Assembly: GCA_016235345.1 (NCBI GenBank)
Contig: JACRLG010000028.1
Span: 1 to 64,000 of the forward strand
Length of the DNA: 64,000 nucleotides
Source of the DNA: Deltaproteobacteria bacterium
GTDB lineage: Bacteria; Desulfobacterota; Desulfobacteria; Desulfobacterales; Desulfatibacillaceae
Direction of reading: 5' to 3'
The first letter of the stretch is position 1; each line of letters opens with the position of its first letter. The notes under the pieces were generated by a model that saw only the letters and a program-made list of their open reading frames with translations, was not told where the DNA came from and made no database searches. Position numbers and translations under genes: made by a program. Positions 16,657-38,787 of the stretch are shown piece by piece.

Positions 16657-17799
16657 ATGGACTTTCAATTCACCAAGGATCAGTTGATGTTCAAGGAGGA
16701 GGTCATCCGCTTCGCAAAAAAGGAGATCGTCCCCCGCGTTCAGGAACACGACCTTAAAAACGAGTTCGATTTCGAATCCTTCCGCAAAATGGGCGAGTTC
16801 GGCATTCTTGGCCTGCATTTCCCCGAGGAACTGGGCGGCCAGGGCGCGGACGTGATCACCACGGTGCTGGCTGGCGAAGCATTGGGGGAAGCGGGCGTTG
16901 ACGGCGGACTCACCCTGGCCTACGGCGCACATACCTTTTTATGCGCGGACACCCTCTTCCGCCACGGAAACGACGCCCAGCGCAAAAAATACATCCCGAA
17001 ACTCGCAAGCGGCGAGTGGATAGGCTGCATGGGCCTCACCGAGCCGGGCGCGGGGAGCGACGTGGCCTCCATGACATCCACCGCCGAAAAACGGGACGGC
17101 AAATACATTTTAAACGGCAACAAGATGTTCATCACCAACGGCCCCATTGCAGACGTGGCCGTGGTCTACGCCAAGACCGACCCGGCGGCCCACCACGCGG
17201 GAATCTCTGCCTTCATCATCGAAAAAGGGACCCCCGGATTTTCCGCAGGCCCGCCCCTCATCAAAATGGGCGTTCACACGTCCCAGACCTCGGAACTCAT
17301 AATGCAGGACTGCGCCATCCCGGAGGAAAACCTCCTTGGCCAGGAAGGCATGGGCTTTCTGATGGCAATGGGCACCGTTGAATGGGACCGCTCGGCGCTT
17401 CTTGCCCCCTTCATAGGCTCCGGGGCGTATCTCCTTAAAAAATGCACCCGCTACGCCAAGGACCGCGTGCAGTTCGGCAGGCCCATCGGCCAGTTCCAGG
17501 CCACCAAGCACAAGCTCGCCAACATCCGCATAATGCTGGAAGCGGCCAAGGCCCTTGTTTACCGCATCGCCTGGTGCAAGAACACGGGAAAGCCCTTAAA
17601 TCACCTGGAAGCCGCAGTGGCCAAGCTCTTTGCGGGCGACTGGACCCTAAATCCCATGAACGACGCCATGCTCCTTTTCGGCGGCTACGGCTACTGCCAC
17701 GAGTACGACGTGGAGCGCTGCTTCCGGGACAGCCGCCTCGCCCCCATCGGCGGCGGCACCAGCGACATCCAGAAGATGATCATCTCAAAGATGCTGTAG
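16657..17799 (+). CDS. Acyl-CoA dehydrogenase.
   Basis: 380 aa ACAD fold (N-terminal helical, beta and C-terminal helical regions, e.g. GCMGLTEPGAGSDV, FGGYGYCHEYDVERCFRDSRL). Confidence 0.9.
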   Translation: MDFQFTKDQLMFKEEVIRFAKKEIVPRVQEHDLKNEFDFESFRKMGEFGILGLHFPEELGGQGADVITTVLAGEALGEAGVDGGLTLAYGAHTFLCADTLFRHGNDAQRKKYIPKLASGEWIGCMGLTEPGAGSDVASMTSTAEKRDGKYILNGNKMFITNGPIADVAVVYAKTDPAAHHAGISAFIIEKGTPGFSAGPPLIKMGVHTSQTSELIMQDCAIPEENLLGQEGMGFLMAMGTVEWDRSALLAPFIGSGAYLLKKCTRYAKDRVQFGRPIGQFQATKHKLANIRIMLEAAKALVYRIAWCKNTGKPLNHLEAAVAKLFAGDWTLNPMNDAMLLFGGYGYCHEYDVERCFRDSRLAPIGGGTSDIQKMIISKML

Positions 17800-17804
17800 A
17801 GGCC

Positions 17805-17912
17805 GCCTCAAAACGCGATCTGCTGTGTTGTGCTCAAAGCCAATTCCGTCACGTACGAAAAGTACGCTTGACTCATTGGCTTATCGCACGCCTTGCAGCT
17901 CATCGTTTTGAG
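17805..17912 (+). repeat. Intergenic palindromic repeat element, copy A (subfamily 1).
   Basis: Shares ..AAAACGCGA.., the AAGCCAATTCCGYCACGTACGAAAAGTACGCTTGACTCATTGGCTT hairpin core and ..CATCGTTTT.. with copies C, E and F. Confidence 0.7.
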
Positions 17913-18002
17913 ACAGCCTCTACGGGCGGCGCATTTGAACATCTTGGTGGGCTCTTTGAACAGGCGGGAGCCGAACCGAAGCAAATATAAAGGAGCAATA
18001 AC

Positions 18003-19118
18003 ATGAACTTCGAGTTCAACGAAAAGGAACAGGCATTTTTGACCCAGATTGAGTCAATAATGACCGATTTTGAGCCCATGGCGGGAAAGAGCGTGACCGA
18101 GCCCCTGGCCGCCATCCTGGAAAAGCTCGCAGCCACCGAATATCTTAAGCTCGGCCTGGAAAAGACCGAGGGAATGGGCGTCCCGGTCATTCTGGCCGCA
18201 GCCCAGGAGCGCTTCGCCGCCGCCTACCCCTCGCTCTATCTCACTGTTGAAATGAGCGCCAGGGTTTTCGGGCGCATCCTTTTTTATCACGCGGACGCCG
18301 CCCAGAAGGCGAAATACCTCGCGCCCCTTCTGGCCGGAAAACTCGTCGGTGCGCTGGCGCTTTCGGAAAGCTCCATGAACGTGGACAACGAGCCGCTTTC
18401 CACCACGGCCACGGCTGACGGCGGCGGATACGTGGTTTCCGGCGCGAAAAGCTACGTGGTGAACGCGGGCGTTGCGGACGTGATCGCCGTCGCCTGCCGG
18501 GTAGACGACAAGGTGGGCTTCGCGCTTGTGGACAAAAATGCTGCTGGCCTTACCATCGGAAACCCCTACGCCACCCTTGGCTTCGAGGGAGCCCTGATAG
18601 CGAGCCTCACCCTTGAAAACGTGAAGGTGGAAAAGGGCGCTTTCCTTGGTCCTTACGACGCCAAAACCGCGCTTTCGGCGGTGCGGATGTTCGAAAACCA
18701 GGTCCTCACCGGAGCCGCCGTGGGGGCCATGAAGGCCGCCTTCGAGGCCGCAAAAAAGCACGCCAAGGAACACAAGAGCGGCGGAAAGCCGGTCATCGCC
18801 TTCCAGGAGGTGGCCTTCAAGCTGGCGGAGATGCTGACCTCGCTTCAGACCGGCGAGCTTTTCGCCATGCGGAGCGCCTGGGTTGCGGAAACCACACCCA
18901 AGGAAGCGGAGGACATCATCCTCTGCGCCAAGGTCTTCTGTTCGGAATCGGCGGAAAAGGTGGCCTCGGACGCCCTCCAGATTCTGGGCGGCGCGGGCTT
19001 CACCATCCCCAACGCGGCGGAGCGGGCCTACAGGAACGCCAAGTATACGGCCATCGCCGGGACTTCCACGGAAATCTGCCGGGTTAAAATCGGCGACTCG
19101 GAACTCGGATACAGGTAA
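18003..19118 (+). CDS. Acyl-CoA dehydrogenase family protein (divergent, possibly a partner subunit).
   Basis: 371 aa with ACAD-like architecture but weak conservation of catalytic-region motifs. Confidence 0.75.
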   Translation: MNFEFNEKEQAFLTQIESIMTDFEPMAGKSVTEPLAAILEKLAATEYLKLGLEKTEGMGVPVILAAAQERFAAAYPSLYLTVEMSARVFGRILFYHADAAQKAKYLAPLLAGKLVGALALSESSMNVDNEPLSTTATADGGGYVVSGAKSYVVNAGVADVIAVACRVDDKVGFALVDKNAAGLTIGNPYATLGFEGALIASLTLENVKVEKGAFLGPYDAKTALSAVRMFENQVLTGAAVGAMKAAFEAAKKHAKEHKSGGKPVIAFQEVAFKLAEMLTSLQTGELFAMRSAWVAETTPKEAEDIILCAKVFCSESAEKVASDALQILGGAGFTIPNAAERAYRNAKYTAIAGTSTEICRVKIGDSELGYR

Positions 19119-19125
19119 ACCATTC

Positions 19126-19240
19126 GCCCGTCTAAAAACGCGAATGGCGGTGTCACGCATCACGGCACGGGTCGTCATGTACGAAAAGTACTACTCCTCC
19201 CCGCGCCGCTCGCGAACCTTAGCGTTTCATCGCCAAAACT
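19126..19240 (+). repeat. Intergenic palindromic repeat element, copy B (subfamily 2).
   Basis: CCCGTCTAAAAACGCGAA left end, core GGGTCGTCATGTACGAAAAGTACTAC TCCTCCCCGC and right end TTCATCG. Nearly identical to copy D. Confidence 0.7.
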
Positions 19241-19291
19241 CAACAACTGACATCCAGGCTTCATATCAAGCCTTTTTCAACGGACTCATAA

Positions 19292-19948
19292 ATGACTGAA
19301 GCGGCAAAAAACGGAACGGTTTCAACAAGCGCCCTTCGCAGGCAGAGGGAGCGGGAGCAGCGGTATCAAACGATATTGTCGGTGGCCGAAAACCTTTTTT
19401 CCACAGAGGGCTACCACGCCACCAGCATGGACAGGATCGCCCAGGCGGCGGAGGTCTCGGTAGGCACCCTGTACTTTTACTTCAAGAACAAGGAAGACCT
19501 TCTGGTCCAGCTCTTATCCGACATCGGCTTTCGCATAAGGGAGCTTGTGGGAAGCGAATTTATCCGCTCTGACGCGACACTCGTTGGTTTCGAGCAGGCG
19601 GGCCTTTCGTTTTTCACACAGTTTTGCGTTAAGCACCCGGAAAAGATCACCATTTTTTTCCGGGAATCCGTAGGCCAGGGACAGGCCGTGGAGGCCATGC
19701 GGAAAAAAATATTCAAAAAGTTCACCGCCGATATAGTCGGCGCCCTTGAGCGGCTTTCCAAGAAACTTGGCGTGACCTTCAGAAGCGGGCTTTCCACCGA
19801 AGTGATGGCCGTGTCCATTGTGGGCATGTACGAGAAGGTGGCCTACCAGTATCTTATCTGGAACGACAGGTCGGACGAGCTTCAGCGCGTGGCGGAAGAC
19901 GCCCTTGCCTTCATCGTGGGCGGCGTCAAAAACCTGTGCAAAGAGTAA
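19292..19948 (+). CDS. TetR/AcrR family transcriptional regulator.
   Basis: N-terminal HTH LFSTEGYHATSMDRIAQAAEVSVGTLYFYFKNKEDL. Confidence 0.85.
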   Translation: MTEAAKNGTVSTSALRRQREREQRYQTILSVAENLFSTEGYHATSMDRIAQAAEVSVGTLYFYFKNKEDLLVQLLSDIGFRIRELVGSEFIRSDATLVGFEQAGLSFFTQFCVKHPEKITIFFRESVGQGQAVEAMRKKIFKKFTADIVGALERLSKKLGVTFRSGLSTEVMAVSIVGMYEKVAYQYLIWNDRSDELQRVAEDALAFIVGGVKNLCKE

Positions 19949-19952
19949 AGCC

Positions 19953-20516
19953 ATGCACTTGAAAGGCGCACTCCACGTACACACCACCTGCTCGGACGGC
20001 ACCCTGTCCATAAAGGAGGCCGTGGAAGCCCACGAGGCCCAGGGCTTTGACTTCATGGCCCTCACAGACCATGATTTTCTGATGCGCAAGGGCTGCTACG
20101 ACGTTGTTTCGCGCCTTCGCACGGACATGATAATTTTTCTGGGCGAGGAGATCATGTTCCACGAGAAGGGCTACATCCACATAAACCGGGTGCAGGGCGA
20201 CCGGGAAGTTCTCCACGTTTTCAACCATCCGTCGGAGCTTGGGCTTCCGGTTCCCCAGACCATCGAGCGCATGAGGGCAGTTTCCGAAAAACTGCGCCTG
20301 GATGCGGTTGAAATCACCACCAGGGGCTTTTACACGAAGGAATTCGACGTCCCAGAAGTATGGCTTAAAAAGATCGCAACGGACGACTCCCACGAGCGCC
20401 ACATGATAGGACGCGCCTGGGTGGAGATGGACGCCCCGCGCGACAAGGACGCAATTTTGCGGGCCATAAAAAACGGGGATTTCTGGAACTGCTTCGCATC
20501 GAGAAGGCACAGATAA
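19953..20516 (+). CDS. PHP-domain (polymerase/histidinol-phosphatase-like) metal-dependent phosphoesterase.
   Basis: LHVHTTCSDG and ALTDHD motifs. Start assigned to ATG 19953 (MHLKGALHVHT). Confidence 0.7.
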   Translation: MHLKGALHVHTTCSDGTLSIKEAVEAHEAQGFDFMALTDHDFLMRKGCYDVVSRLRTDMIIFLGEEIMFHEKGYIHINRVQGDREVLHVFNHPSELGLPVPQTIERMRAVSEKLRLDAVEITTRGFYTKEFDVPEVWLKKIATDDSHERHMIGRAWVEMDAPRDKDAILRAIKNGDFWNCFASRRHR

Positions 20517-20557
20517 ATATCTTTGTGGCTCTGAACTATTTTCAGCAAAGCGCTTTT

Positions 20558-20623
20558 CCTGGGAGCGCGGGCGTCCCGCCCGCTTTTGCAGCGTAATGCG
20601 GGCGGGACGCCCGCGCTCCCAGG
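20558..20623. promoter_or_regulatory. Long perfect GC-rich hairpin (26-bp stem, 14-nt loop): a putative terminator or regulatory structure.
   Basis: CCTGGGAGCGCGGGCGTCCCGCCCGC ttttgcagcgtaat GCGGGCGGGACGCCCGCGCTCCCAGG, between the PHP gene and the thiolase gene. Confidence 0.4.
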
Positions 20624-20752
20624 GTAAAAGTTTCCTGTCCATTTTACGGCAAAGTTGAGAATAGCATAAAGCCACGAAGATTTTTTCGGAAGGGCGCGAC
20701 AATCCGCGCCATTTTTCAATCACTGGCATAAAAGGCTTCGGAGGGTTCAACC

Positions 20753-21892
20753 ATGAACAAAGTCGGCATCTGCGCGGTTGCGCAAGGTCCCTTTGAACGG
20801 AACACCTGGCACGAGCGCTTCCAGGGCATGGCCATGCCCGTACTGGAATCGCTCCTTTCGCAAACCGGCCTCGACTTCGCCGAAGACACGGGCATAAACG
20901 TCATCGTCTCCTGCTCGGACGACGTTTTCGACGCCCGCACCATTTCGGACAACGGCATGACCGATGTTCTGGGCGGCCACATGCGCTGCGAGGAAAAGGT
21001 GGCCCAGGACGGCATCCAGGCGGTCTACTACGCATCAAGCATCATAATGAGCGGCTACACCGACGTGGTGCTGGTTTTGGGCCACTCGAAGGAATCCCAG
21101 GGCCAGAGCCGCAACATGGTGACGCACCTTGCCTTCGACCCATTCTACACAAGGCCTGTGGGGCTTGATTTCACGGCGGCGGCGGGGCTCCAGGCAAGGG
21201 CCTACGGAAAACTTTCCGGCGTCTCCGAAGAAGAACTCGCCGAAATCGTGGTGAGAAGCCGCGAGAACGCGAAGAGAAATCCGCACACCCAGGACCTTGC
21301 GCCTGTTTCGATGGACGACGTTCTTTCCTCCCCCATGCTGGCCGACCCCATCCGCCAGCTTCACGCCTACCCGGTATCGGACGGCGTTGTGGGAATGATC
21401 TTCGCTTCCGAGGAACGCGCCAAAAAACTCTGCAAGAACCCGGTCTGGGTCACGGGCCTGGGTAACTGCATGGACGGCTTCTTTCTGGGAGACCGGGACA
21501 TCGCCGACAACTTCGCTCTTAAAAAGGCGGCGGAGCGCGCCTACAAGCGGGCTGGAATCACCGACCCGGCCAAGGAAATCGACATCTTCGAGGTGTCCGA
21601 TCACTACGCCTACCAGCAGCCCATGTGGCTTGAGGGCCTGGGGCTCGCCGAAACCGGAAAGGGCCCGAAGTTCCTGGCACACGGAGGCAAGGACCGGGTG
21701 AATCCTTCGGGCGGGATGCTTGCCGGAAACCCCCTCATGCTGGGCGGCCTCGTTCGCGCGGCGGAAGCCGCCGTGCAGCTTAAAAATGAGGCCGGGGACA
21801 GGCAGATTCCGGGAGTGAAGAAGGCGCTCGCCCACGGAGTTATGGGGCCGGCGGGGCAGTTCCATGGCGTTGCGGTTTTATCAAAGGACTAG
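20753..21892 (+). CDS. Thiolase-like protein (SCP-x/Ltp-type; may be a non-canonical partner subunit).
   Basis: 379 aa thiolase fold lacking the canonical N-terminal active-site Cys context. Adjacent to a second thiolase-like gene. Confidence 0.75.
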   Translation: MNKVGICAVAQGPFERNTWHERFQGMAMPVLESLLSQTGLDFAEDTGINVIVSCSDDVFDARTISDNGMTDVLGGHMRCEEKVAQDGIQAVYYASSIIMSGYTDVVLVLGHSKESQGQSRNMVTHLAFDPFYTRPVGLDFTAAAGLQARAYGKLSGVSEEELAEIVVRSRENAKRNPHTQDLAPVSMDDVLSSPMLADPIRQLHAYPVSDGVVGMIFASEERAKKLCKNPVWVTGLGNCMDGFFLGDRDIADNFALKKAAERAYKRAGITDPAKEIDIFEVSDHYAYQQPMWLEGLGLAETGKGPKFLAHGGKDRVNPSGGMLAGNPLMLGGLVRAAEAAVQLKNEAGDRQIPGVKKALAHGVMGPAGQFHGVAVLSKD

Positions 21893-21903
21893 GAGGAATA
21901 ACG

Positions 21904-23094
21904 ATGAGCAAACACAAGAAAAACCGCAACGTGGGCGTCGTGGGGGTGGGCATGTCGGTCTTTTCCAGCCACCGCGAGGAAGTGAACCAGCCTGAAATGA
22001 TTTTCGAGGCAGTGGCCGAGGCCCTCAAAAACGCCGGAATAACCATGGATGACGTTGATTGCGTGGTTCACGGCAACATGGAGCTTTTTGAAATGGTCCA
22101 TCAGCCGGACCTCTGGCACACCCTCGGCACGGGCTCGCGCGGGAAGGAAGTCTTGCGGGTCACCACCGGCGGCACCACCGGCGCGACCCTGGTCTGCGCG
22201 GCGGACGCCCTGGTTGCCTCCGGGCTTCATGACATAGTGCTGGCCATCGGCTTCGAAAAGCTCCAGGAAGGCCACACCACGGGCGGCATCACCAATATGG
22301 CGGATCCCTTGTGGGCGCGCCAGCTTCAGACCGGGGCTCTCACCGGCATGACTGCAGCCGACATGATAGAGGAGTTCGGCGAGGAGAGGGCCAAGAAGGT
22401 TTCCATGCGTTACCGCATCCTCATGGATGAAAACTGCATGAAAAACAGGAAGGCCCACCGCCGCCTTGGCCTCACCATGGATCAGGCCGACGATCTTGCG
22501 GTCAACTCCCCGGCCCTGGTGGGCGAGCTTCGCATGATCCACATGTGCTCCCAGAGCGACGGGGCCTGCGCCATGATCTTCGCCTCCGAGGAAAAGGCGA
22601 AACAGCTCTGCAAGCGGCCCGCATGGATAAAGGACCACATCACGGTCCACCGGGAGGAGATGTTCTGCATCTTCGGCGATGCCCCATACAAGACCACCAT
22701 GCGATACGCCGCCGAAAAGCTCTTTGAGCGCAACGGCGTGAAAAATCCGGTTGAGGAATTCGACGTTTTCGAGATGTACGACCCCTCCTCCTGGTGGGCC
22801 ACCGACTGGCTGCGGGAGTTCCTGCTTCTCGAAGGCGACCAGCACCTGAAAATGGTGGAAAACGACGAGATCGCCATAAACGGGAAACTGCCCATAAACC
22901 CGTCGGGAGGCGTCATCGGTTCCAACCCCATCGGGGCCACGGCAATGGTGAGGGTAGCGGAGGCCGCCATGCAGATAATGGGAACAGCCGGGGAGCACCA
23001 GGTTCCGCACGAAGTCAACAAGGCCCTTGCATCGGGCTTCGGCGGCACCATGTGGACGGTCCTGTTCATTTTAACCAGCGAAGTTCCCCAATAG
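21904..23094 (+). CDS. Thiolase-like protein (SCP-x/Ltp2-type).
   Basis: 396 aa thiolase fold (GVVGVGMS, NPSGG, GATAMV). Confidence 0.8.
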   Translation: MSKHKKNRNVGVVGVGMSVFSSHREEVNQPEMIFEAVAEALKNAGITMDDVDCVVHGNMELFEMVHQPDLWHTLGTGSRGKEVLRVTTGGTTGATLVCAADALVASGLHDIVLAIGFEKLQEGHTTGGITNMADPLWARQLQTGALTGMTAADMIEEFGEERAKKVSMRYRILMDENCMKNRKAHRRLGLTMDQADDLAVNSPALVGELRMIHMCSQSDGACAMIFASEEKAKQLCKRPAWIKDHITVHREEMFCIFGDAPYKTTMRYAAEKLFERNGVKNPVEEFDVFEMYDPSSWWATDWLREFLLLEGDQHLKMVENDEIAINGKLPINPSGGVIGSNPIGATAMVRVAEAAMQIMGTAGEHQVPHEVNKALASGFGGTMWTVLFILTSEVPQ

Positions 23095-23113
23095 GCGAAG
23101 GGAGGAAGATAAC

Positions 23114-26137: not shown

Positions 26138-26138
26138 C

Positions 26139-26255
26139 AGCCCGTCTAAAAACGCGAACTGACAGTGCCAGAGCTTCAAAGCCAATTCCGCCACGTACTT
26201 TCAGTACGCTTGCTCATTGGCTTATCGCTCTCCTTGCATTTCATCGTTTTTATCC
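26139..26255 (+). repeat. Intergenic palindromic repeat element, copy C (subfamily 1).
   Basis: Starts 2 nt after the stop codon at 26137 and contains the AAGCCAATTCCGCCACGTAC...CATTGGCTT hairpin core. Confidence 0.7.
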
Positions 26256-26305
26256 AGGCTGTAATCCAAGCCTTTTGGGGACGGCTGTTAAAAGGAGGAA
26301 ATGAC

Positions 26306-29201: not shown

Positions 29202-29223
29202 AAAACCCAAGGAGGAAACTTAC

Positions 29224-29868: not shown

Positions 29869-29921
29869 CATGTCTTTATAATTGTCTTTTCCGTGGGGGG
29901 ACAGCCCATCAGGAGGATAAA

Positions 29922-31082
29922 ATGTCTTTCGAGTTCAGCACCAAGGCAGGATGCCAGGAGTACTTCACCAAGGCCCACGAGATGTTTCGGAAGGCCGTGG
30001 CGGATTTCGTGAAAAAGGAGATACTCCCTTTTGTGGATGAGTGGGAGGAGGCGGGCGAGTTTCCCCGCGAGCTTTACAAAAAGGCCGGTGACGCGGACAT
30101 ATTATCCATCTGCTACCCTGAGGATGTGGGCGGAACACCGGCTGACGTGTTTTTCGCGGTAACGCTCACCGAAGAGCTGATGAAATGCACCTCGGCGGGG
30201 CTTGTGGCAAGCCTGGGAAGCCACGGGATCTCGATTCCGCCCATAGTGCGCCACGGAACGCCGGACCAGAAAAAGCGCTTCGTGGAGCCGGTTTTGAGGG
30301 GCGAGAGGATTTCCGCCCTTGGAATCACGGAGCCGGGGGGCGGCTCGGACGTCGCCAACATCCAGACAACAGCCTTGCGCGAGGGCGATTTCTACTTGGT
30401 GAACGGCTCCAAAACCTTCATCACCTCCGGCTGCCGGGCGGACCAGATAACGACAGCGGTGCGTACTGGCGGGCCGGGTCACGCCGGAATCAGCTTTCTT
30501 CTCATCGAAACGAACACCCCCGGTTTCAAGGTGGGGGCGAAACTCAAAAAGATGGGCTGGTGGGCCTCGGACACCGCAGAGCTTTATTTCGACAACTGCA
30601 GGGTTCCGGCTGAAAACCTTATCGGCGCGGAAAACGGCGGGTTTTACATCATAATGGAAAACTTCCAGACCGAGCGGCTTTCCCTTGCCATAATGGCCAA
30701 TACCACCAGTGAAATCGCGCTCAACGAGGCGCAGAAGTACGCAAAGGAGCGCCACGCATTCGGAAAGCCAATTTCTGCCTTCCAGGTGACACGGCACAAG
30801 CTGGCGGACATGGCCACCCTTTTGACCGCAAGCAAGGAATTCACCTACCGGGTGGCGGCCAAAATCGACGCGGGCCAGAACATGGTGAAGGAAGTTAGCA
30901 TGGCCAAGAACTTCGCCTGCTCGGTAGCCGACAAGGTGACGTACGACGCGGTGCAGATTTTCGGCGGCGCGGGCTACATGCGCGGAACAGTGGTGGAGAG
31001 GCTTTTCCGCGACAACCGCATTCTTTCCATCGGCGGCGGAACCCAGGAGATAATGAAGGAGATCATCTCGAAACTCATGTGA
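29922..31082 (+). CDS. Acyl-CoA dehydrogenase.
   Basis: 386 aa ACAD (GITEPGGGSDV, IFGGAGYMRGTVVERLFRDNRILSIGGGTQEI). Confidence 0.9.
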   Translation: MSFEFSTKAGCQEYFTKAHEMFRKAVADFVKKEILPFVDEWEEAGEFPRELYKKAGDADILSICYPEDVGGTPADVFFAVTLTEELMKCTSAGLVASLGSHGISIPPIVRHGTPDQKKRFVEPVLRGERISALGITEPGGGSDVANIQTTALREGDFYLVNGSKTFITSGCRADQITTAVRTGGPGHAGISFLLIETNTPGFKVGAKLKKMGWWASDTAELYFDNCRVPAENLIGAENGGFYIIMENFQTERLSLAIMANTTSEIALNEAQKYAKERHAFGKPISAFQVTRHKLADMATLLTASKEFTYRVAAKIDAGQNMVKEVSMAKNFACSVADKVTYDAVQIFGGAGYMRGTVVERLFRDNRILSIGGGTQEIMKEIISKLM

Positions 31083-31174: not shown

Positions 31175-33349
31175 TCATTCGGCGAACCACTTGAGCCAGA
31201 CAACCGCCACCGCCAGGACCAACATGAGGATGCCCGTCAGCCAGTAGGCCAGGGTGTGCTTCTCCTCGGCGTAGGGGTCGTTCATAAGCCTTTCAGCCCC
31301 GGCGGGGAGCTTGGCGAGGGAAGTCAGGCTGTGGCCGAAGGCGATGTTGATCTTGGCCCTTGTGTTCACCGCCCAGCCGGACGCGTCCAGAAGCGGCCCA
31401 AGGTTCCTCTGGCGCAATTTAAGCCACGCCATGAGCATTGAAGGCCCTGAAATCAGGAGAATAATTCCGATCAACGCAATGGGCATCTTCCACCAGGAAA
31501 GGGCCATGAAGCCGGTCACCACCGAGGCTATGGCGGTGCCTATGGCACCCACCGCAAGACCGATGGCTGCGAAGATTCCGGCGAAGCGGGCCACGTCGAA
31601 GGGGGCGGGAAGAGCTCCGGGCTTGGGCGCGGGTTTTGACTCCTCCAACTTTTTACCGGCATCGGCGATTTTTGCGGCCCCCGCGTCCCCTACGGCCTTG
31701 TCCTTGGCCGCCGCGAACTTATCCACCTGCTCGCCTATCATGCGGGCGACCCGCTTGTAGGGAGCGAAAAACGCCTGCCTGATGCTTATGGGATGCTCCA
31801 CTATCTTCACTATGGTTGCGTCCCAGTCATTGCCGGCCTTGTCGTAGAACACCCCGTTCCGGCCCACCATCAACTGGTCGCCGTCGCCGTTGGTCACCGC
31901 TCCCGCGATGGTCATTTTGGCGTCTGAGCCTTTGCGTGTGCAGTCGCAATAGGCCAGGTACATGCGGCTCAAGCCCGCAAGCGCGCCGTGCTTTGCCATG
32001 TCGTGAACCTTCACGCAAAGGTCCAGGGCCTTGCCGTCAATGTAAAGTGTTCCGGCCTGAAAAACAGCCGTATCCAGCCCCTTGTAAAACTCGGCAAACG
32101 ACACGAAATTAGTAAGCAGCCTGTGAAGGTCGCGGGTGTAGCGCACCAATCGTTTTACGGAAGAGACCGACTCGAATTCGACCTTTTTGGCCTCGTCCAT
32201 TTCGATCAAGGAAATTATGGCTTCTCTTACCCCGCCTTCAATAATCTCCCGAACCCTTTTGCGACCAAGCTTTTCAACGGATGTTTCCACGCGCTTGGCT
32301 ATGGTTTCCTCGTAACGGGCAAATCGTGAAACAAGATCGCCAAACTCATTCTCGGTAAGGCTGTCTTTGGGACCGATGAGCGGAACCACGACTTTGGAGG
32401 AGAAATCCTTCATGGCGGCCAGAAACGCCGGGTTGACTCCCTCGAACATCGGCAGGGGGCGTCCGGGAGCCACTGGGGCAAGCGGGAAACGGGCGATGGA
32501 TGCAAGGGAGGCCGAAAGCTCCTCGCCCGATATCGCCTCGTAATCGGCGGGGGTAAGGTTCAGGGCCGCGCCCGCCTCGGCGTCGAAGCCCGCAAGGCGG
32601 CAGCGGATATAGTAGTCTTCAATCTTCGCCTTGACAGCCGTCAATGATGCGTGGGCGGCCCGGGTTTCCTCTCCGAGAATGAGAATGGCCCCGTTTTCCC
32701 TGTCCAGCTCGTCCCGCCAGGTCAAAAACGTTTCAGCCTCATCGAAAAAATTATACAAAAGCTCCCGGCTTACGCCAAGCTCGCCGGAGCGGTCGGTTTC
32801 GCCTCCCGCGCAGTTCAGAATATCCTTCATGGCGGCGGCAACCTTTGGATCTTCAACCGACGAAACCGGCACTATTCCGTCGCCGTTAAATCTGGCTTTG
32901 GCGAACAGCTCCTCGACATCGTCGATGTCTTCGGCGCTGATGGATGTGGCGTCGGGCTTTTCAAGGGTTTTCAGTATCTCCCTGGCGCTCGCGAGAACCG
33001 CCCTGCCCTCTTCGGTGTCGTCTTTTATGGAATCAAGGGGAAGCTCGGTAAGGCGCTTTACGAGATCGTCCGGGTTTTTCAGAAGGGATGAGGCCAGGCG
33101 CGCCGCCTCGATGACTTCGGGAACCCTTATGCGCCCATCGCCGTCGGTATCCATGAGGGATAGGGTCTCTTCATCGAATTCCAAGCCCTTCACCGGGCAG
33201 GCCAGGGCTGTCCAGAGCTTGGGATCGAGTTCTTTTAGGGCCGCGATGTCGCGCCCCGAATCCAGCATCACCTGGTCGAAACCGCCTAACCGGAAAAACC
33301 TGAACCTGTGACCCGCCCCGTTTTTTTTGAGAATCTCCATGATGGCCAA
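31175..33349 (-). CDS. Large hypothetical protein with an EF-hand-like Ca-binding motif and a C-terminal membrane anchor.
   Basis: 724 aa. DTDGDGRIRVPE loop and two or three C-terminal hydrophobic helices. No recognisable catalytic family. Confidence 0.6.
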   Translation of the reverse strand: MAIMEILKKNGAGHRFRFFRLGGFDQVMLDSGRDIAALKELDPKLWTALACPVKGLEFDEETLSLMDTDGDGRIRVPEVIEAARLASSLLKNPDDLVKRLTELPLDSIKDDTEEGRAVLASAREILKTLEKPDATSISAEDIDDVEELFAKARFNGDGIVPVSSVEDPKVAAAMKDILNCAGGETDRSGELGVSRELLYNFFDEAETFLTWRDELDRENGAILILGEETRAAHASLTAVKAKIEDYYIRCRLAGFDAEAGAALNLTPADYEAISGEELSASLASIARFPLAPVAPGRPLPMFEGVNPAFLAAMKDFSSKVVVPLIGPKDSLTENEFGDLVSRFARYEETIAKRVETSVEKLGRKRVREIIEGGVREAIISLIEMDEAKKVEFESVSSVKRLVRYTRDLHRLLTNFVSFAEFYKGLDTAVFQAGTLYIDGKALDLCVKVHDMAKHGALAGLSRMYLAYCDCTRKGSDAKMTIAGAVTNGDGDQLMVGRNGVFYDKAGNDWDATIVKIVEHPISIRQAFFAPYKRVARMIGEQVDKFAAAKDKAVGDAGAAKIADAGKKLEESKPAPKPGALPAPFDVARFAGIFAAIGLAVGAIGTAIASVVTGFMALSWWKMPIALIGIILLISGPSMLMAWLKLRQRNLGPLLDASGWAVNTRAKINIAFGHSLTSLAKLPAGAERLMNDPYAEEKHTLAYWLTGILMLVLAVAVVWLKWFAE

Positions 33350-33382
33350 GATATCTTCCTTTCCGGTTGCGAAACGAAAGGA

Positions 33383-34423
33383 TCATGGCCTTTCGATAAA
33401 CTCGATTCTGGCCTCCTCCCGCTTTACAATATTGTCAATTTTGCCCTGTGGCCAGCCGATGACGAGGCTGGTGATGATCTTGAACGGCTCTTCGATCTTG
33501 AGCATCTTTTTTAAGTCGGGAAAAAAGCTGATGGCCTTGGCAAGGCTCACGTAGCAGGTTCCGAGCCCCAGGGAGTGGGCCGCAAGAACCATGTTCTGGC
33601 CGCAAATGCCGATGTCGAGGTCAATGTCGCCGATGCCCCTTTTATCGGCCAGCAACAGCACCAGGCAGGGCGCGCCGAAAAAAATGTCGTAACCGGGGTC
33701 GGAGGATGCCGCGTTTATGCCGCCTCGCGCCCTTGGCTCGATCTCGCCGGTCTTGAGTTTTATCAGGAGCGGCAACACGGCCTGCTGCCAGGGGGCGAGG
33801 CTGGCCTTGGCGTCGCCCGGCGTCTTCTTGTTGATCCATGGGTGCGGCAGGGTGAGCCAGGACACCCAGTAAAGAGCTTTTTTGCATTTTTCGTTGATTT
33901 GGTCAATAAGGCCCCGGTCGTCCACAACCACGAATTTCCAGGGCTGGTTGTTTCCCGCCGACGGCGCGAAGCGGCCCGCCTCGATGACCCGCCTTATCAT
34001 CTCGCGGGAAACGGGCTTTTTACGGTACATGCGGTTGCTGCGCCTTTTGTATATGACCTTCTCCGTTTCCGTGAGAAGAGGTTCGATTTCATCAAAGGGC
34101 GTCTTTTCCATTCCGGCGATGGGCGCGGGCGGGGTTTTCCCGCCGGAAAACAGGTGATCGTTTTTCCAAAAGCCTTTTTCCACCCTGTAGTCGCCTTCTA
34201 TGTTAATTGCTCCCTGGGGGCATACCGCCGCGCAGTTCTGGCATGTTATGCAGCGGAAATGATCGTAGCGCCCGTTGGGGCGGCTCTTTTTTTCGAAAAG
34301 CTCCAGAAGCTGGATCGGGCAGGATTTCACGCACCTGCCGCAGCCGTTGCATTTTTCCGCATCCAGAACAAACCTTGCGTATTTTGCTTCGGGAAGATTC
34401 AGAAGCCTTATGTTTTCAAGCAT
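33383..34423 (-). CDS. Ferredoxin (2x[4Fe-4S]) - nitroreductase family fusion.
   Basis: CNGCGRCVKSCP and CITCQNCAAVCP cluster motifs followed by a nitroreductase fold (AGRFAPSAGNNQPWKFVVV). Confidence 0.8.
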   Translation of the reverse strand: MLENIRLLNLPEAKYARFVLDAEKCNGCGRCVKSCPIQLLELFEKKSRPNGRYDHFRCITCQNCAAVCPQGAINIEGDYRVEKGFWKNDHLFSGGKTPPAPIAGMEKTPFDEIEPLLTETEKVIYKRRSNRMYRKKPVSREMIRRVIEAGRFAPSAGNNQPWKFVVVDDRGLIDQINEKCKKALYWVSWLTLPHPWINKKTPGDAKASLAPWQQAVLPLLIKLKTGEIEPRARGGINAASSDPGYDIFFGAPCLVLLLADKRGIGDIDLDIGICGQNMVLAAHSLGLGTCYVSLAKAISFFPDLKKMLKIEEPFKIITSLVIGWPQGKIDNIVKREEARIEFIERP

Positions 34424-34758
34424 GAGACTCTCCTTTCGAGTCGCTTTGCGCAGATGATCCAGGCGGATTTCATGAGCCCCTAAAGCCAGGGAACCAACGG
34501 TGAAAAAAATCAGTAGAAATCCAATATTCGTGCGATTATCGCAACTCGACCTTTACGTCAATCAAATTTCGTACAGCGGGTCAACAGGATTGATGCCGGG
34601 AATAGCAGCATGTGGACAGAATGATTTTACAATCGTAAAAATTACATGATTTCAAATGGCTATAATCATTTCCAGAAAATTTGACTTGCGTGGGACTCGA
34701 AAACAGATTATGAACAGTAAGAAGTTAGTAAGCCTATTTTATACAACAGGAGAAAATT

Positions 34759-35664
34759 ATGGATTCGCCCCCGAAATGGTTCCGCATAGGGCAGTTGGAG
34801 AAGCTCTCAGGCGTCAACCGCCGCACCATCCATTTTTATCTCAAGGAAGGGCTTCTTCCGCCGCCCATGAAAACCGGCAAAACCATGTCCTATTACGACG
34901 AAACCCACCTTAAACGGTTGAAAGCCATAGCCGAATCCAAGGAGGAGGGCCTTCCCCTTTTCGCCATAAGGGAAAGGCTTTCGGAGATGGAGGAGGAAAA
35001 AAGCCGGACTCCTGCCCAGGTAAAAAACCCGTCATCCAAAAAGGCCCTGCCCAAAAGCGCCCAGGGCAACCGGACCCGCGAGGCCGTGCTTGAGCTGGGC
35101 TGTCGGCTTTTTCGCCAGAAGGGTTACAAGAACACCAAGGTTTCGGACATCACCAAGCGCCTTAACGTGGGCAAGGGAACGTTTTATTTTTATTTCACGG
35201 ATAAAAAGGAGCTTTTCCTTGAATGCGTTCCCAGGATTTTTGCCGAGATTTTTTCAACAGGCTGGGAAAAAATAGCAAAGGAAAACGATCCGGCCATAAG
35301 GCTCAAGATTCGCGGCCAGCTCGTCTGGCCGGTGCTTGGCGAATTCTGTTCCATCCTCTCCCTTTCCAAGGAGGCCATGGAGGACCCGGACCCCAAGCTC
35401 AGAAAACTGGGCGAGCAGATTTACGCCTCCATCTGGGGGCCGGTGGTGAGCGACATCAAAAAGGGCATCGCAATGGGGCGCTTCCGGCAGGTTGACCCAA
35501 AGGTGCACGCGTCCATCATAATAGGGGCAACCGAGGGCCTTCACCACCTTTTCAAGCACCACAAGGACGTGCCCGCCGGGGCTTACGACGACGCCATTTT
35601 TCATCTTTTCGCCAAGGGGATAATGACCGACGCCCCGGAACCCCCCGGAGAAGCCTTTGCCTGA
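34759..35664 (+). CDS. Transcriptional regulator, MerR-type HTH fused to a TetR-type HTH/ligand domain.
   Basis: N-terminal FRIGQLEKLSGVNRRTIHFYLKEGLL (MerR). A second HTH TREAVLELGCRLFRQKGYKNTKVSDITKRLNVGKGTFYFYF (TetR) comes after a linker. Confidence 0.75.
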   Translation: MDSPPKWFRIGQLEKLSGVNRRTIHFYLKEGLLPPPMKTGKTMSYYDETHLKRLKAIAESKEEGLPLFAIRERLSEMEEEKSRTPAQVKNPSSKKALPKSAQGNRTREAVLELGCRLFRQKGYKNTKVSDITKRLNVGKGTFYFYFTDKKELFLECVPRIFAEIFSTGWEKIAKENDPAIRLKIRGQLVWPVLGEFCSILSLSKEAMEDPDPKLRKLGEQIYASIWGPVVSDIKKGIAMGRFRQVDPKVHASIIIGATEGLHHLFKHHKDVPAGAYDDAIFHLFAKGIMTDAPEPPGEAFA

Positions 35665-35880
35665 AACCGCCTTTCGGTGATAAACTTTACACCTATTGGC
35701 TATAAGCTGGCTCTTTTTTGACGCTGGGCGTCCTGGCCTGTGACGCCCAGCCCGTCAAGCCTGGTCCGCCCGAAAAACTCCGATCCGACTGCTTTTGAAC
35801 ATCATTCTTCCATGCCCCTCAAACGTCGCTGAGACTATCCAGTTCCAATCCCAGGAATTTGTCCACCCGTAAAATTTCGC

Positions 35881-35909
35881 TTGACTATCGAGTCAGAATC
35901 TTCTAAATT
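35881..35909 (+). promoter_or_regulatory. Putative sigma70-like promoter (TTGACT-17-TAAATT) overlapped by the perfect palindrome TGACTatcgAGTCA (putative operator), upstream of the thiolase and PaaK-like ligase genes.
   Basis: Hexamers spaced 17 nt about 95 bp upstream of ATG 36004. The 14-bp palindrome overlaps the -35 element. Confidence 0.3.
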
Positions 35910-36003
35910 CCGACCTTAAAGTCAACGACTTCAAACCGCGCCGCCGGGAAGGTTTTTCACCGGTTGAAGGCTGCGGCAAAGACCTACGGAAAGGATTTTT
36001 TTC

Positions 36004-37230
36004 ATGCGAGATGTTGCGGTTGTGGGCGTGGGAATGACCCAGTTCGGAAAATGGCCGGAAAAGGGCATAAAAGATTTGGTGCGCGAAGCGGTTACCGACG
36101 CAATGGCCGACTGCGGCGCCGAAATACCGGACTTCGAGGCGGCCTATGTGGGCTCGGCGGCTGCGGGCCTTATGACCGGCCAGGAGCAGATAAGAGCCCA
36201 GGTCACCTTGTCTGCAATGGGGATAGAAGGCATTCCCATGTATAATCTCGAAAACGCCTGCGCAAGCTCCTCCACGGCTTTTCACACAGCGTGGGCGGCG
36301 GTGGGCGCGGGCCTTTACGACTGCGCCCTGGTTGTGGGCTTTGAAAAACTTTACGATGTTGACAAGAAAAAATCCTTCGCAGCCCTGGGTACGGCCGTCG
36401 ACGTGGAGATGGTGAAAAAATTCCTGGAGGATTTCGCCAAGCAACAAAAATCCAAGGAAAAAATCCTCTCCGAAGGCGCGGGCGAGAAAAAATCCATCTT
36501 CATGGACATGTACGCCTACTACACCCGCATGTACATGGATAAATACAACCTGACCCAGGAGCACTTCGGCAAAATCGCCGTAAAGAGCCACAAGAACGGC
36601 GCGAAAAATCCCCACGCACAATACCGCGAGGAAGTGACCCTCGAACAGGTGCTTAATTCCGGCGACGTTGCCTTTCCCCTCACCCGCATGATGTGCTCGC
36701 CCATCGGCGACGGGGCGGCGGCGGCCATAGTCTGCTCCAGGGAACGGGCAGCCAGCTTCAAAAAGCACGCGCCGGTCTGGGTGGCCGCCTCGGTGGTGGG
36801 TTCCGGCAAGCCCTCGGCGGGCCTTTCGGACACCTTGACCAAGCGCCTCGGCCCCAAGGCCTTCGCCGCAGCCGGAGTCGACCCCAAAGACATCAACGTG
36901 ATAGAGGTCCACGACGCCACAAGCCCCTCCGAGATCATCACCCTGATAGAGCTTGGACTGGTTCCGGGCGACCAGGCAGGGCGCTACATCGATGACGGGC
37001 TCCTGGAAATCGACGGAATCCTTGCGTCCAACACATCGGGCGGCCTGGCCTCCAAGGGGCATCCCATCGGGGCCACCGGAACCGGCCAGATTCACGAGAT
37101 CGTCAACCAGCTTCGCGGCACAGCAGGCCCCCGTCAGGTGAAAAACCCCAAGATCGGCATGACCCACAACGGAGGCGGAATACTGGGGGTGGATGCGGCG
37201 GCTATGACGCTTCACGTTTTCAGGGCGTGA
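36004..37230 (+). CDS. SCP-x type thiolase / nonspecific lipid-transfer-protein-like thiolase.
   Basis: 408 aa (VAVVGVGMTQFGK, NACASSSTAF, NTSGGLASKGHPIGATG). Confidence 0.85.
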   Translation: MRDVAVVGVGMTQFGKWPEKGIKDLVREAVTDAMADCGAEIPDFEAAYVGSAAAGLMTGQEQIRAQVTLSAMGIEGIPMYNLENACASSSTAFHTAWAAVGAGLYDCALVVGFEKLYDVDKKKSFAALGTAVDVEMVKKFLEDFAKQQKSKEKILSEGAGEKKSIFMDMYAYYTRMYMDKYNLTQEHFGKIAVKSHKNGAKNPHAQYREEVTLEQVLNSGDVAFPLTRMMCSPIGDGAAAAIVCSRERAASFKKHAPVWVAASVVGSGKPSAGLSDTLTKRLGPKAFAAAGVDPKDINVIEVHDATSPSEIITLIELGLVPGDQAGRYIDDGLLEIDGILASNTSGGLASKGHPIGATGTGQIHEIVNQLRGTAGPRQVKNPKIGMTHNGGGILGVDAAAMTLHVFRA

Positions 37231-37232
37231 CA

Positions 37233-37346
37233 GGCGTCCAAAAACGCGAACTGGCAGTGCCAGAGCTTCAAAGCCAATTCCGCCACGTACTTTTAGTACG
37301 CGCGGCTCTTATGGCTTCTCGCGCGACGCGTTCATCGTTTTTGACC
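37233..37346 (+). repeat. Intergenic palindromic repeat element, copy E (subfamily 1).
   Basis: Starts 3 nt after the stop at 37230. Shares the AAAACGCGAACTGGCAGTGCCAGAGCTTCAAAGCCAATTCCGCCACGTAC core. Confidence 0.7.
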
Positions 37347-37419
37347 GCCCTTTCCGGTGGTGCCCTTAAAGAAACCAAACAATATTCATTTTCAACTGGC
37401 ATTACAAGGAGGCGTCAGC

Positions 37420-38787
37420 ATGGATACCGCCCGCAAATACTGGAACATGGAGATTGAGGAGAAGCTGGGAACCGAAGCCATCCGGGAACTCCAATGGCAG
37501 AAGCTCCAGAAGGCTCTTGTCTGGCAGTATGAAAACACCCCATTCAACCGGGACCGCTTCGACAAGGCGGGCGTGAAACCAGGCGACATCAAGAGCCTCG
37601 AGGATTTTTCGCGCCTCATTCCCGTTGCCGGGCAGCCCGAAGTGCGCGAGGTCATCGGCAAGGTGGGGCTGGACATGAAGGCTCTGATGCTGCATCTCTT
37701 CGGCCAGAGCCGGGTTGACGATCTTTATCTTCTCACCACCACCAGCGGCACCACCGGCATTCCCACCCCCTACCCCAATTTTCGCAAGGCCATAGACGGA
37801 GCCAAGGAAATAATGTGCCGGGCAGCCTGGCGTATGGGGCTGCGGCCCAAGGACACCATAGGCCTTTGCTTCGGGCTTTCCATGCACGCGGCGGGAACCC
37901 CCCAGCTTCTCTGGTACCAGGACTTTCCGGGCATCACCATGGTTCCCATCGGGGCCGAGGCCGGCACGGAAAAAATACTCATGTTCATGAAGCTATTCGG
38001 CGTCAACGTGTTCACCGGCACGCCTTCGCTGGCCCTTCACCTGATCGAGCGCTGCCCCGAAGTCCTTCACGAACCCATCAAAAATCTTGGAATCAAAATC
38101 CTCATTCTTGGGGCCGAACCCGGAGCCGGAATCCCGGAAGTGCGCCAAAGGCTTGAAACCGAGTACGGGGCCAAGGTCTTCGACGCGGGCGCTGGCTACG
38201 GCTGCTCCTGCGAACACCCGGTTTACCAGGGAATGCACTGGCTGGCGGACGACAAGGCGTATTATGAACTGGTGAACCCTGAGACAATGGAGCCGGTTCC
38301 CATGGAGCACGGTGCCACCGGCATCATGGTGGGGACCTCCCTTGAGCCGGAAAGCGCCGTGTGGTTCGACATGCGCTTCACGTTGGGCGACATCCACCAG
38401 GTTTTCACCGAGCCCTGCCCCTGCGGGCGCTCCGGTTTCCGCTACAAGGTTGTGGGCCGCAGCGACGACATGCTGAAGGTCAAGGGCGTTCCCGTGTATC
38501 CGGCGGCCATCGAGGGCGTCATCCACTCGTTCCCGGAAAAACTCACCGGGCATTTCCGAATCATCCTGGAAGAACCGCCACCCCGAGTTGTTCCTCCCCT
38601 TAAATTGAAGGTGGAGCATGCTCCGGGCGTGACGGCGGACCAACTTCCGGCCCTTGAAAAGGAAATAAGCGAGCGGATGCACAAGCTCCTGAAGATCCGA
38701 CCGGCCATAACCTGGCTTGCCCCCAACACCCTTTCCAGAGAAACCAAAAAGACTCAGCTCCTGGAAAAAGCGTACGAGAGCAAGTAG
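37420..38787 (+). CDS. Phenylacetate-CoA ligase (PaaK)-like / coenzyme F390 synthetase family adenylate-forming enzyme.
   Basis: TTSGTTGIPTPY P-loop, PaaK-like N-terminus and C-terminal AMP-binding_C. RBS CAAGGAGG precedes ATG 37420. Confidence 0.8.
   Translation: MDTARKYWNMEIEEKLGTEAIRELQWQKLQKALVWQYENTPFNRDRFDKAGVKPGDIKSLEDFSRLIPVAGQPEVREVIGKVGLDMKALMLHLFGQSRVDDLYLLTTTSGTTGIPTPYPNFRKAIDGAKEIMCRAAWRMGLRPKDTIGLCFGLSMHAAGTPQLLWYQDFPGITMVPIGAEAGTEKILMFMKLFGVNVFTGTPSLALHLIERCPEVLHEPIKNLGIKILILGAEPGAGIPEVRQRLETEYGAKVFDAGAGYGCSCEHPVYQGMHWLADDKAYYELVNPETMEPVPMEHGATGIMVGTSLEPESAVWFDMRFTLGDIHQVFTEPCPCGRSGFRYKVVGRSDDMLKVKGVPVYPAAIEGVIHSFPEKLTGHFRIILEEPPPRVVPPLKLKVEHAPGVTADQLPALEKEISERMHKLLKIRPAITWLAPNTLSRETKKTQLLEKAYESK

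Follow-up and report, generated by a model that had tools for sequence, protein, structure and literature searches.

The operon described here occupies positions 16657-31082 of a 64,000-nt stretch (the window) of contig JACRLG010000028.1 from a deltaproteobacterium of the family Desulfatibacillaceae (assembly GCA_016235345.1). Its gene content and the active-site residues of its two adjacent thiolase-fold proteins, Thl1 and Thl2, suggest that its products shorten the chain of a hydrophobic carboxylic acid aldolytically, by a retro-aldol reaction, a reading that we hold to have a slightly better than even chance. The system is of a known kind, that of ChsH-Ltp2, Shy-Sal, and Ltp3-Ltp4, which combines an acyl-CoA dehydrogenase (ACAD), a MaoC/DUF35 hydratase, and a thiolase-fold aldolase. 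Its new aspects are the cysteine-less heteromeric pair, the YDPS motif, the delivery of DUF35 as fusions with a ligase-SCP2 array and, N-terminally, with a PhaJ-like hydratase, the occurrence in strict anaerobes, and the likely substrate class. The initial annotation of this DNA had described a beta-oxidation-like cluster of unknown substrate, built from DUF35, SCP-x-type thiolase-fold, and MaoC modules, and this general description holds.

Conservation of the nine-gene operon

Domains in the window were called by Pfam scans, with NCBIfam profiles for selected proteins (Table 1), and synteny was surveyed by tblastn over 38 related loci from 36 species-level genomes. The gene tables of Desulfosarcina widdelii, whose ligase is DSCW_55610, Desulfatirhabdium butyrativorans, and a metagenome-assembled genome (MAG) of Desulfosudis oleivorans were also inspected. 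The invariant order is ACAD1, ACAD2, TetR, PHP, Thl1, Thl2, ligase-SCP2n-DUF35, DUF35-MaoC, and ACAD3, and it is retained in ~30 Desulfobacterales genomes, wherever the contig is long enough. Identical gene order across family-level divergence is conservation far beyond chance. No other protein of the operon is as conserved as Thl2, whose median identity to its relatives is 80%; the corresponding values are 75-86% (median 78%) for ACAD1 and 38-61% (median 48%) for ACAD2, and the PHP gene was found in 27 loci. Thl1 and Thl2 are separated by 12 nt in the window and are adjacent, in the same order, in all related loci. A literature search on the operon, or on its domain combination in sulfate reducers, found no relevant paper, and a scan of the cluster for sigma-70 promoters and terminators gave counts equal to the level of shuffled controls.

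Beside the core, at least 17 loci carry a paralogous, unfused module that consists of Thl1', Thl2', a protein with two SCP2 units, a stand-alone DUF35 protein, and a crotonase (ECH). The partnership with DUF35 that had been proposed is thus real, being visible in two gene fusions of the core and in the same parts as separate genes in these modules. An aldehyde:ferredoxin oxidoreductase (AOR) gene follows the paralogous module in L004, L018, and L042 (three loci, two lineages); a BKACE gene lies divergently upstream of it in L004 and L042, and in L042 there are also, alongside it, the genes of two CoA-transferase subunits and of an MFS transporter. No gene for a 3-hydroxyacyl-CoA dehydrogenase or a short-chain dehydrogenase/reductase was seen in the core of the window or in L001, L002, and L042. 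None was seen either in L006, whose expanded cluster contains two Thl pairs, one MaoC and two crotonase-type hydratases, and, in the annotated stretch, at least three ACADs. Even clusters expanded to 15-17 genes have recruited no 3-hydroxyacyl-CoA dehydrogenase.

The ligase protein begins with a ligase domain (residues 1-500), which scores above the cut-off only for the long-chain-fatty-acid-CoA ligase model of NCBIfam. Its SCP2 units are encoded by three tandem 339-nt DNA repeats (24658-25635) that are 80-85% identical, and the DUF35 part, a zinc ribbon and OB fold, starts at ~25770. The fusion is common in Desulfobacterales, where proteins of ~780, 895, and 1007 aa correspond to one, two, and three SCP2 units, and one orthologue of 1158 aa possibly has four, a pattern suggesting that the carrier array has grown and shrunk repeatedly. 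In the hydratase, the DUF35 part shows a Cx2C-x10-Cx2C zinc ribbon plus an OB fold, and the MaoC domain retains an intact hydratase-2 motif (GDFNPMH), with the PhaJ-type (R)-specific hydratases 5cpg, 1iq6, and 3ir3 as its nearest structures. It had been called ChsH2-like, a comparison that does not stand: ChsH1/ChsH2 is a double-hot-dog heteromer with a C-terminal DUF35, whereas the present protein is a single PhaJ-like hot dog in the reverse domain order, with DUF35 at the N-terminus.

ACAD3 has the invariant helix-G Glu that serves as the base in the IVD/LCAD type, and all three ACADs have Gly at the position of MCAD Glu376, in an IVD/LCAD-like manner. ACAD2, which always comes after ACAD1, is possibly its partner subunit, and the alignment is ambiguous on the idea of a catalytically dead beta-subunit. 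The TetR regulator has full-length PDB matches to Bacillus subtilis FadR (3whb, 1vi0) and to 5gpa and 6el2, which we take to be FadR-type TetR regulators as well. The single-sequence model of the PHP protein had a pLDDT of 41.5 and was unusable. Nothing tested indicates the steroid or arylalkyl substrate that was first considered; the TetR protein resembles fatty-acyl-CoA sensors and the ligase fits the long-chain-fatty-acid model only.

The Thl1-Thl2 pair and its relatives

We aligned 47 Thl1 and 50 Thl2 sequences, comprising the orthologues and the paralogous pair, with the co-resident Thl3, which has the canonical thiolase motifs (Cys86, HD.., and GHP). At the site of the nucleophilic cysteine, Gly is present in 47/47 Thl1 and 49/50 Thl2 sequences, including every core orthologue of both, and one distant Thl2 paralogue may keep Cys. 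At the HDCF motif, Thl1 has SD[QHL]Y or ND.., and Thl2 has YDPS in 49/50 sequences, with the Tyr itself in 50/50. The GHP motif is replaced by GNP in Thl1, with a few GSP/GTP, and by [SAT]NP in Thl2. Both catalytic His residues are accordingly lost from Thl1 and Thl2 in the alignment, and since the Cys nucleophile is missing as well, thiolysis by either protein is essentially excluded. The public annotation uses the names 'acetyl-CoA C-acetyltransferase', 'thiolase family protein', and 'long-chain-fatty-acid-CoA ligase' (the ligase and Thl2 of the window are 100% identical to NCBI MAG proteins with the locus tag HZB23_13805). Without the catalytic cysteine, the first of these labels must be wrong; the public naming is generic, and the thiolase activity that it gives Thl2 is incorrect.

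The SCP2 thiolases have HDCF at the position of YDPS in Thl2, Ltp2 has YDHF, in which Tyr294 is the base and His forms the oxyanion hole, together with a second catalytic Tyr, and Sal has YDCY, in which Tyr302 is the base, and Gly at the nucleophile site (PMC12329534). The conserved Tyr of Thl2, Tyr292, falls at the same alignment position as the catalytic Tyr residues of Ltp2 and Sal, and a Tyr-based retro-aldol mechanism is plausible for Thl2 on this ground. A third, more distantly related thiolase-like pair is present in L020 after the core DUF35-MaoC, together with a DUF35-MaoC of its own. The Thl2-like member of this pair reads YNPF and seems to have retained a Cys (TETCGS) close to the nucleophile site; it may be an intermediate between a thiolase and the cysteine-less form.

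The best PDB sequence and fold matches of the thiolase-like proteins have the SCP2-thiolase fold (6hrv/6hsj, 7yvy, and 7pxp). By sequence, Thl2 matches the SCP2 thiolase 6hsj with an E-value of 5.6e-27, Ltp2 (6ok1) with 2.4e-9, and Sal with 4e-8. The AlphaFold model of Thl2 is of moderate confidence (pLDDT 73.9, pTM 0.83), and in Foldseek it retrieves the SCP2-thiolase fold, with thiolases and aldolases alike at a TM-score of ~0.7 and not discriminated; the Ltp2 structure 6ok1 ranks 21. Among NCBIfam models, the best for Thl2 is PRK08313, ahead by ~96 bits (268 bits against a cut-off of 514), and Thl1 reaches 194 bits with PRK07937 against a cut-off of 419, its best match being another model. 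A tblastn search of plasmid and replicon records revealed 33%-identical relatives of Thl2 in actinobacteria. In Streptomyces clavuligerus (L040), they form a trio of a double-DUF35 protein, a 355-aa thiolase-like protein, and a 389-aa thiolase-like protein, and in Nocardia farcinica (L041) the same trio adjoins an Rv3520c-family F420 oxidoreductase and a FadD-type ligase. The thiolase-like pair of N. farcinica exceeds the cut-offs of PRK07937 and PRK08313 (596 and 750 bits), and a 49-kb stretch of the Nocardia record holds only a canonical FadA-type thiolase and no Ltp2/ChsH locus. We take PRK07937 and PRK08313 to be Ltp4 and Ltp3, respectively, on the basis of the Rv3520c-family synteny and of the order Rv3520c-Rv3521-ltp4-ltp3 that we presume for Mycobacterium tuberculosis.

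The paired Ltp3/Ltp4 proteins with their double-DUF35 protein are thus the nearest known counterpart, in place of Ltp2-ChsH2 and BbsAB, the analogues put forward at first, of which BbsAB is a poor one. As in Ltp3-Ltp4, the two thiolase-fold genes are adjacent, with the short Ltp4-like gene first and the Ltp3-like gene second. Thl2 shares 33-34% identity with the Ltp3 family, along with the Gly/Ser nucleophile site, Y-x-P, and [AS]NPIGA; the aligned signatures are TGGTTG/YDPS/SNPIGA in Thl2 and TAGSVG or TGGATG/YVPF or YAPF/[AS]NPIGA in the Ltp3-like proteins. The identity of Thl1 to the Ltp4 family is 32-36%, and the NP[LM]M..G motif is common to both. Both systems have two DUF35 domains per pair, in tandem in the actinobacterial neighbour. 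In contrast to the Rv3521-type double-DUF35 protein, one DUF35 is here carried by the ligase-SCP2 fusion and one by the MaoC hydratase; furthermore, Thl1 and Thl2 remain far under the curated cut-offs of the families, the organism lives as a strict anaerobe, and the neighbourhood is free of steroid genes. Ltp3-Ltp4 has been described as a heteromeric aldol-lyase (PMC6678751) that is required for C24-branched sterol side chains (PMC6273163, PMC6678751).

The igr operon, which removes the C3 side chain of cholesterol, resembles the present one in its paired ACAD (ChsE1-ChsE2), its DUF35-bearing MaoC hydratase (ChsH1-ChsH2), its cysteine-less thiolase-fold enzyme with Tyr at the HDCF position (Ltp2), and the lack of a 3-hydroxyacyl-CoA dehydrogenase. 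Unlike Ltp2, the aldolase-like component here consists of two different subunits, the Thl2 motif is YDPS and not YDHF, and the similarity is weak (E 2e-9). In the case of Shy-Sal-Sad, which acts on the bile-acid C5 side chain in proteobacteria, Sal shares Gly at the nucleophile site and the Tyr with Thl2, but it is homodimeric, its similarity is likewise weak (E 4e-8), and its essential Cys304 of YDCY is Pro in Thl2. The crystal structure of Sal with the DUF35 part of Shy shows a thiolase-fold dimer flanked by two DUF35 domains (PMC12329534), an arrangement that the two DUF35 domains per Thl pair would fit. The aldehyde formed in Shy-Sal-Sad is oxidised and re-activated by a ligase (PMC12329534), a logic that the ligase tethered here and the AOR of relatives match; compared with the NAD-dependent aldehyde dehydrogenase Sad, these relatives carry a ferredoxin-dependent, tungsten/molybdenum-type AOR. 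Peroxisomal SCP-x/MFE-2 and BbsAB, of the SCP2-thiolase family with SCP2 or DUF35 partners, share the SCP2-thiolase fold, SCP2 fused to beta-oxidation enzymes, and an (R)-specific hydratase, but SCP-x and BbsAB are true thiolases with a catalytic Cys that act after a dehydrogenase, and both features are missing here.

Proposed reaction sequence and competing explanations

In the proposed sequence, the ligase domain would form the acyl-CoA while the SCP2 repeats hold the lipophilic tail, and a 2,3-double bond would be introduced by ACAD1, perhaps with ACAD2 as partner, or by ACAD3. The PhaJ-like MaoC domain would hydrate this bond to the (3R)-hydroxyacyl-CoA, and a Thl1-Thl2 heterodimer, with the conserved Tyr of Thl2 as the presumed base, would cleave C2-C3 by a retro-aldol reaction into acetyl-CoA (or propionyl-CoA) and an aldehyde or ketone. 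The DUF35 domains of the ligase and the hydratase could dock on two faces of the thiolase-fold dimer, which would put activation, hydration, and cleavage in one complex, and the FadR-like TetR protein would sense the acyl-CoA. We infer here the aldolase activity, the heterodimer, the DUF35 docking, the direction of flux, and the substrate.

For the substrate, we prefer acids that cannot be oxidised at C3, namely 3-branched or ring-attached ones such as isoprenoid and naphthenic acids. In 3-methyl isoprenoid and ring-attached acetic acids, C3 is tertiary after hydration, so that the dehydrogenase route is chemically blocked, and it is this same problem that Ltp2 and Ltp3/4 solve. Plain fatty acids are the alternative; the aldehyde could then be re-oxidised by AOR and the acid re-activated by the tethered ligase, by analogy with Shy-Sal-Sad. 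Both classes fit and are not separable on present data. A bolder version, to which we give rather little credence, is that Desulfobacterales possess an undescribed aldolytic fatty-acid oxidation in which each round splits a (3R)-hydroxyacyl-CoA on the cysteine-less heterodimer into acetyl-CoA and an aldehyde, a ferredoxin-dependent AOR gains low-potential electrons from the aldehyde, and the tethered ligase re-activates the acid at once. If true, sulfate reducers would degrade lipids by a new energy-metabolic variant, with low-potential electrons that are never available from ordinary beta-oxidation, and the Ltp3/Ltp4-type pair would have its first enzymatic role beyond actinobacterial sterol catabolism.

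Several points weigh against the retro-aldol assignment. The third motif residue of Thl2 is Pro, compared with His or Cys in the proven aldolases, so the acid catalyst cannot be named. Both by sequence and by fold ranking, true SCP2 thiolases are closer to Thl2 than Ltp2 and Sal are; an aldolase function would therefore be an independent or an Ltp3-type derivation. The MaoC domain resembles short/medium-chain PhaJ enzymes and not steroid hydratases. AOR is absent from this window, and where the gene after the paralogous module is visible it is AOR in only 3 of ~6 loci, not in L006, L019, and L027. A dehydrogenase and a thiolase encoded elsewhere could complete an ordinary beta-oxidation. The literature search turned up no biochemical or expression study of any member, and the function of Ltp3/Ltp4 itself has genetic support only (PMC6273163, PMC6678751).

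The absence of all classical catalytic residues from both Thl1 and Thl2 could also mean that the pair is a dead scaffold, which holds the ligase-SCP2 protein and the hydratase together through DUF35; the operon would then activate, dehydrogenate, and hydrate ordinary long-chain fatty acids, with beta-oxidation finished by a dehydrogenase and a true thiolase encoded elsewhere. The long-chain-fatty-acid model of the ligase, the FadR-like TetR, the PhaJ-like hydratase, and the fatty-acid-oxidising Desulfobacterales that carry the operon are all in line with such a scaffold, but we consider it unlikely; Thl2 is the most conserved protein (median 80%) with an invariant Tyr at the catalytic position of known aldolases, no dehydrogenase is found even in the expanded clusters of 15-17 genes, and AOR is a neighbour in some relatives. 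Moreover, (3R)-hydroxyacyl-CoA is, to our knowledge, not a substrate of ordinary FadB-type dehydrogenases. Whether cleavage is aldolytic or thiolytic had been left undecided in the initial annotation, and the aldolytic half survives, as it fits the active-site residues and no 3-hydroxyacyl-CoA dehydrogenase was seen. That Thl1/Thl2 with DUF35 form a BbsAB-like thiolase is extremely improbable: BbsB is among the sequence and fold matches, but the Cys nucleophile and both His are gone in all orthologues, and no dehydrogenase is there to supply the 3-oxo substrate.

The complex could instead work in the direction of synthesis and make a longer or branched lipid, either by acyl transfer in the manner of the DUF35-containing PhlABC/MucABC acyltransferases or by an aldol reaction that joins acetyl-CoA to a fatty aldehyde, with dehydration and enoyl reduction as the next steps. 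Acids can be reduced to aldehydes by AOR, and PhlC-type and MucABC-type acyltransferase components appear at similar Foldseek scores. Yet PhlC and the archaeal thiolases keep the catalytic Cys that is missing in Thl1/Thl2, three to five ACADs with a FadR-like repressor are typical of catabolism, and no KAS-III or HMG-CoA-synthase-like partner is present, so we regard a biosynthetic role as improbable even though DUF35/thiolase-fold complexes serve synthesis in archaea and in the Phl/Muc systems (PMC12960953, PMC6392133). We are similarly sceptical that the whole span 16657-38787, of which the core makes up about two thirds, is one steroid or arylalkyl pathway. The genes are close together at native GC content, copies of the hairpin repeat lie ahead of several core genes and of the PaaK-like gene alike, and Thl3 is a potentially active SCP-x-type thiolase. 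However, the genes of 31175-38787 accompany the core in 0/38 related loci, orf724 and the nitroreductase lie on the opposite strand, the neighbours of orf724 elsewhere are unrelated, and the repeat, which also precedes the RND efflux operon and shifts sites in relatives, defines no regulon. The single cluster that the initial annotation had drawn is hence upheld by synteny for 16657-31082 and not for the remainder.

The operon is among the most conserved lipid-related gene sets of the Desulfosarcina/Desulfococcus/Desulfatibacillum group, the dominant mineralisers of carbon in anoxic marine sediments and at hydrocarbon seeps. Should the retro-aldol assignment be true, thiolase-fold aldolases would be present in strict anaerobes as well as in aerobic steroid degraders, the uncharacterised Ltp3/Ltp4 type would gain a biochemical handle, and the O2-free passage of beta-branched and ring-attached carbons, as in isoprenoid and naphthenic acids, could be explained in sulfate reducers. 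The ligase-SCP2(n)-DUF35 fusion, with one to three and possibly four SCP2 units, would be a natural case of a DUF35 docking module that tethers successive enzymes. The proposal is of value mainly because it offers a hypothesis, clear and testable, for a gene set that is widespread and mis-annotated.

Flanking genes, insertion, and hairpin repeat

Every gene named in the initial annotation (the ACADs, thiolase-like genes, ligases, regulators, nitroreductase, PHP, and DUF35-MaoC) was recovered by Pfam in its place, and the GC content of the span, 0.56-0.60, is native, being the same as in the remainder of the window. Four genes had been overlooked: the URO-D methyltransferase, the corrinoid protein, the C92 amidase, and orf724.

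Table 1. Positions of genes and repeats in the window, and of the paralogous module in related loci
Feature	Position	Strand	Basis or remark
ACAD1, acyl-CoA dehydrogenase, 380 aa	16657-17799	+	Pfam; first core gene
ACAD2, divergent acyl-CoA dehydrogenase paralogue, 371 aa	18003-19118	+	Pfam, weak N-terminal domain
TetR-family regulator, FadR-like	19292-19948	+	Pfam, PDB matches
PHP-domain metal hydrolase, small, 187 aa	19953-20516	+	Pfam, NCBIfam; core member
Thl1, thiolase-fold, Ltp4-like, presumed partner subunit	20753-21892	+	Pfam, alignment, NCBIfam
Thl2, thiolase-fold, Ltp3-like, presumed catalytic aldolase subunit	21904-23094	+	Pfam, alignment, NCBIfam, model
AMP-/acyl-CoA ligase with three SCP2 repeats and C-terminal DUF35, 1007 aa	23114-26137	+	Pfam, NCBIfam
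DUF35-MaoC hydratase	26303-27202	+	Pfam; true start 26303
URO-D-family methyltransferase, MtaA-like	27350-28531	+	Pfam; PDB 4ay7, E 3e-9
Corrinoid protein	28542-29201	+	Pfam
C92 amidase, secreted	29224-29868	+	Pfam
ACAD3, acyl-CoA dehydrogenase	29922-31082	+	Pfam; last core gene
orf724, 724 aa, membrane-anchored	31175-33349	-	No Pfam domain; convergent with ACAD3
Ferredoxin-nitroreductase	33383-34423	-	Pfam
MerR-TetR fusion regulator	34759-35664	+	Pfam
Thl3, SCP-x-type thiolase-like, keeps Cys86 and both His	36004-37230	+	Pfam, alignment
PaaK-like ligase	37420-38787	+	Pfam
Repeat copies, ~125 nt	17801-17923, 19126-19250, 26140-26264, 27193-27317, 37232-37355	+	Five in the span
Repeat copy six	53601-53726	-	Upstream of RND efflux operon
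Paralogous module with ligase	15382-23021 (L042); 14041-22790 (L006)		Also in L004, L018

A 2.7-kb insertion (27193-29921) splits the core between DUF35-MaoC and ACAD3, and its genes are absent from 38/38 related loci. The URO-D/corrinoid/C92 stretch reads as a foreign, genome-specific insertion outside the conserved module. It represents two thirds of a corrinoid methyl-transfer system, with no third component nearby, and a repeat copy lies exactly at its left junction. In the same 38 loci, none of the URO-D, B12, C92, orf724, nitroreductase, MerR-TetR, Thl3, and PaaK-like genes occurs within 10 kb of the ligase. The orf724 protein has C-terminal membrane helices and more than 5000 relatives of 53-59% identity in Deltaproteobacteria, Syntrophales, and Planctomycetes, all of them hypothetical; it was rejected as a pathway member on account of its unrelated gene neighbourhoods elsewhere. 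The MerR-TetR regulator is an unusual fusion of an N-terminal MerR helix-turn-helix and a central TetR_N helix-turn-helix in one chain. Thl3 has no DUF35 neighbour, and together with MerR-TetR and the PaaK-like ligase it possibly belongs to a separate unit of genome-specific neighbours.

Where four repeat copies had been counted in the cluster, five are present, plus a sixth elsewhere in the window, and all six are co-oriented with the downstream gene. The repeat folds into a long imperfect hairpin of 27 pairs, with 89% of the cells paired and 22 pairs with compensatory changes, in an alignment that was fitted to the structure model, which favours structure; 0/500 shuffles reached these values and slid controls gave 6-10 compensatory pairs. 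Rfam gave no match for the repeat. In L044, a 98%-identical relative, the two copies covered by its contig are both kept; in L029, a 94% relative, the repeat stands at a different site, before Thl1; and in L012, a Desulfatibacillaceae genome, weak copies lie on the opposite strand. A riboswitch or cis-regulator of the operon was rejected in view of the missing Rfam match, the shifts in site and strand among relatives, and the copy before the RND operon. The repeat looks like a REP/MITE-like mobile hairpin and not an operon regulator, though it may conceivably act as a structured RNA.

Upstream of ACAD1, a 29%-GC island between polA and ACAD1 carries an 844-aa TIR-TPR gene (13660-16194, minus strand). 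In L044, a 181-aa gene occupies the same site together with an HTH_37/Gp49 pair of toxin-antitoxin-like type. The site looks like a swapped defence cassette. The DNA polymerase I gene (10645-13624, plus strand) is split into overlapping open reading frames at 10645-12033 and 11903-13624, through a frameshift, a pseudogene, or an assembly error, and is intact in a close relative (896 aa). The RND efflux operon (45713-53350, minus strand) comprises two OEP genes, a membrane-fusion protein, and an AcrB-type pump. A mobile/defence island at 205-6129 (GC 0.42-0.54) encodes a HEPN protein, a GmrSD-like nuclease, a D5-type primase/helicase, and a tyrosine integrase.

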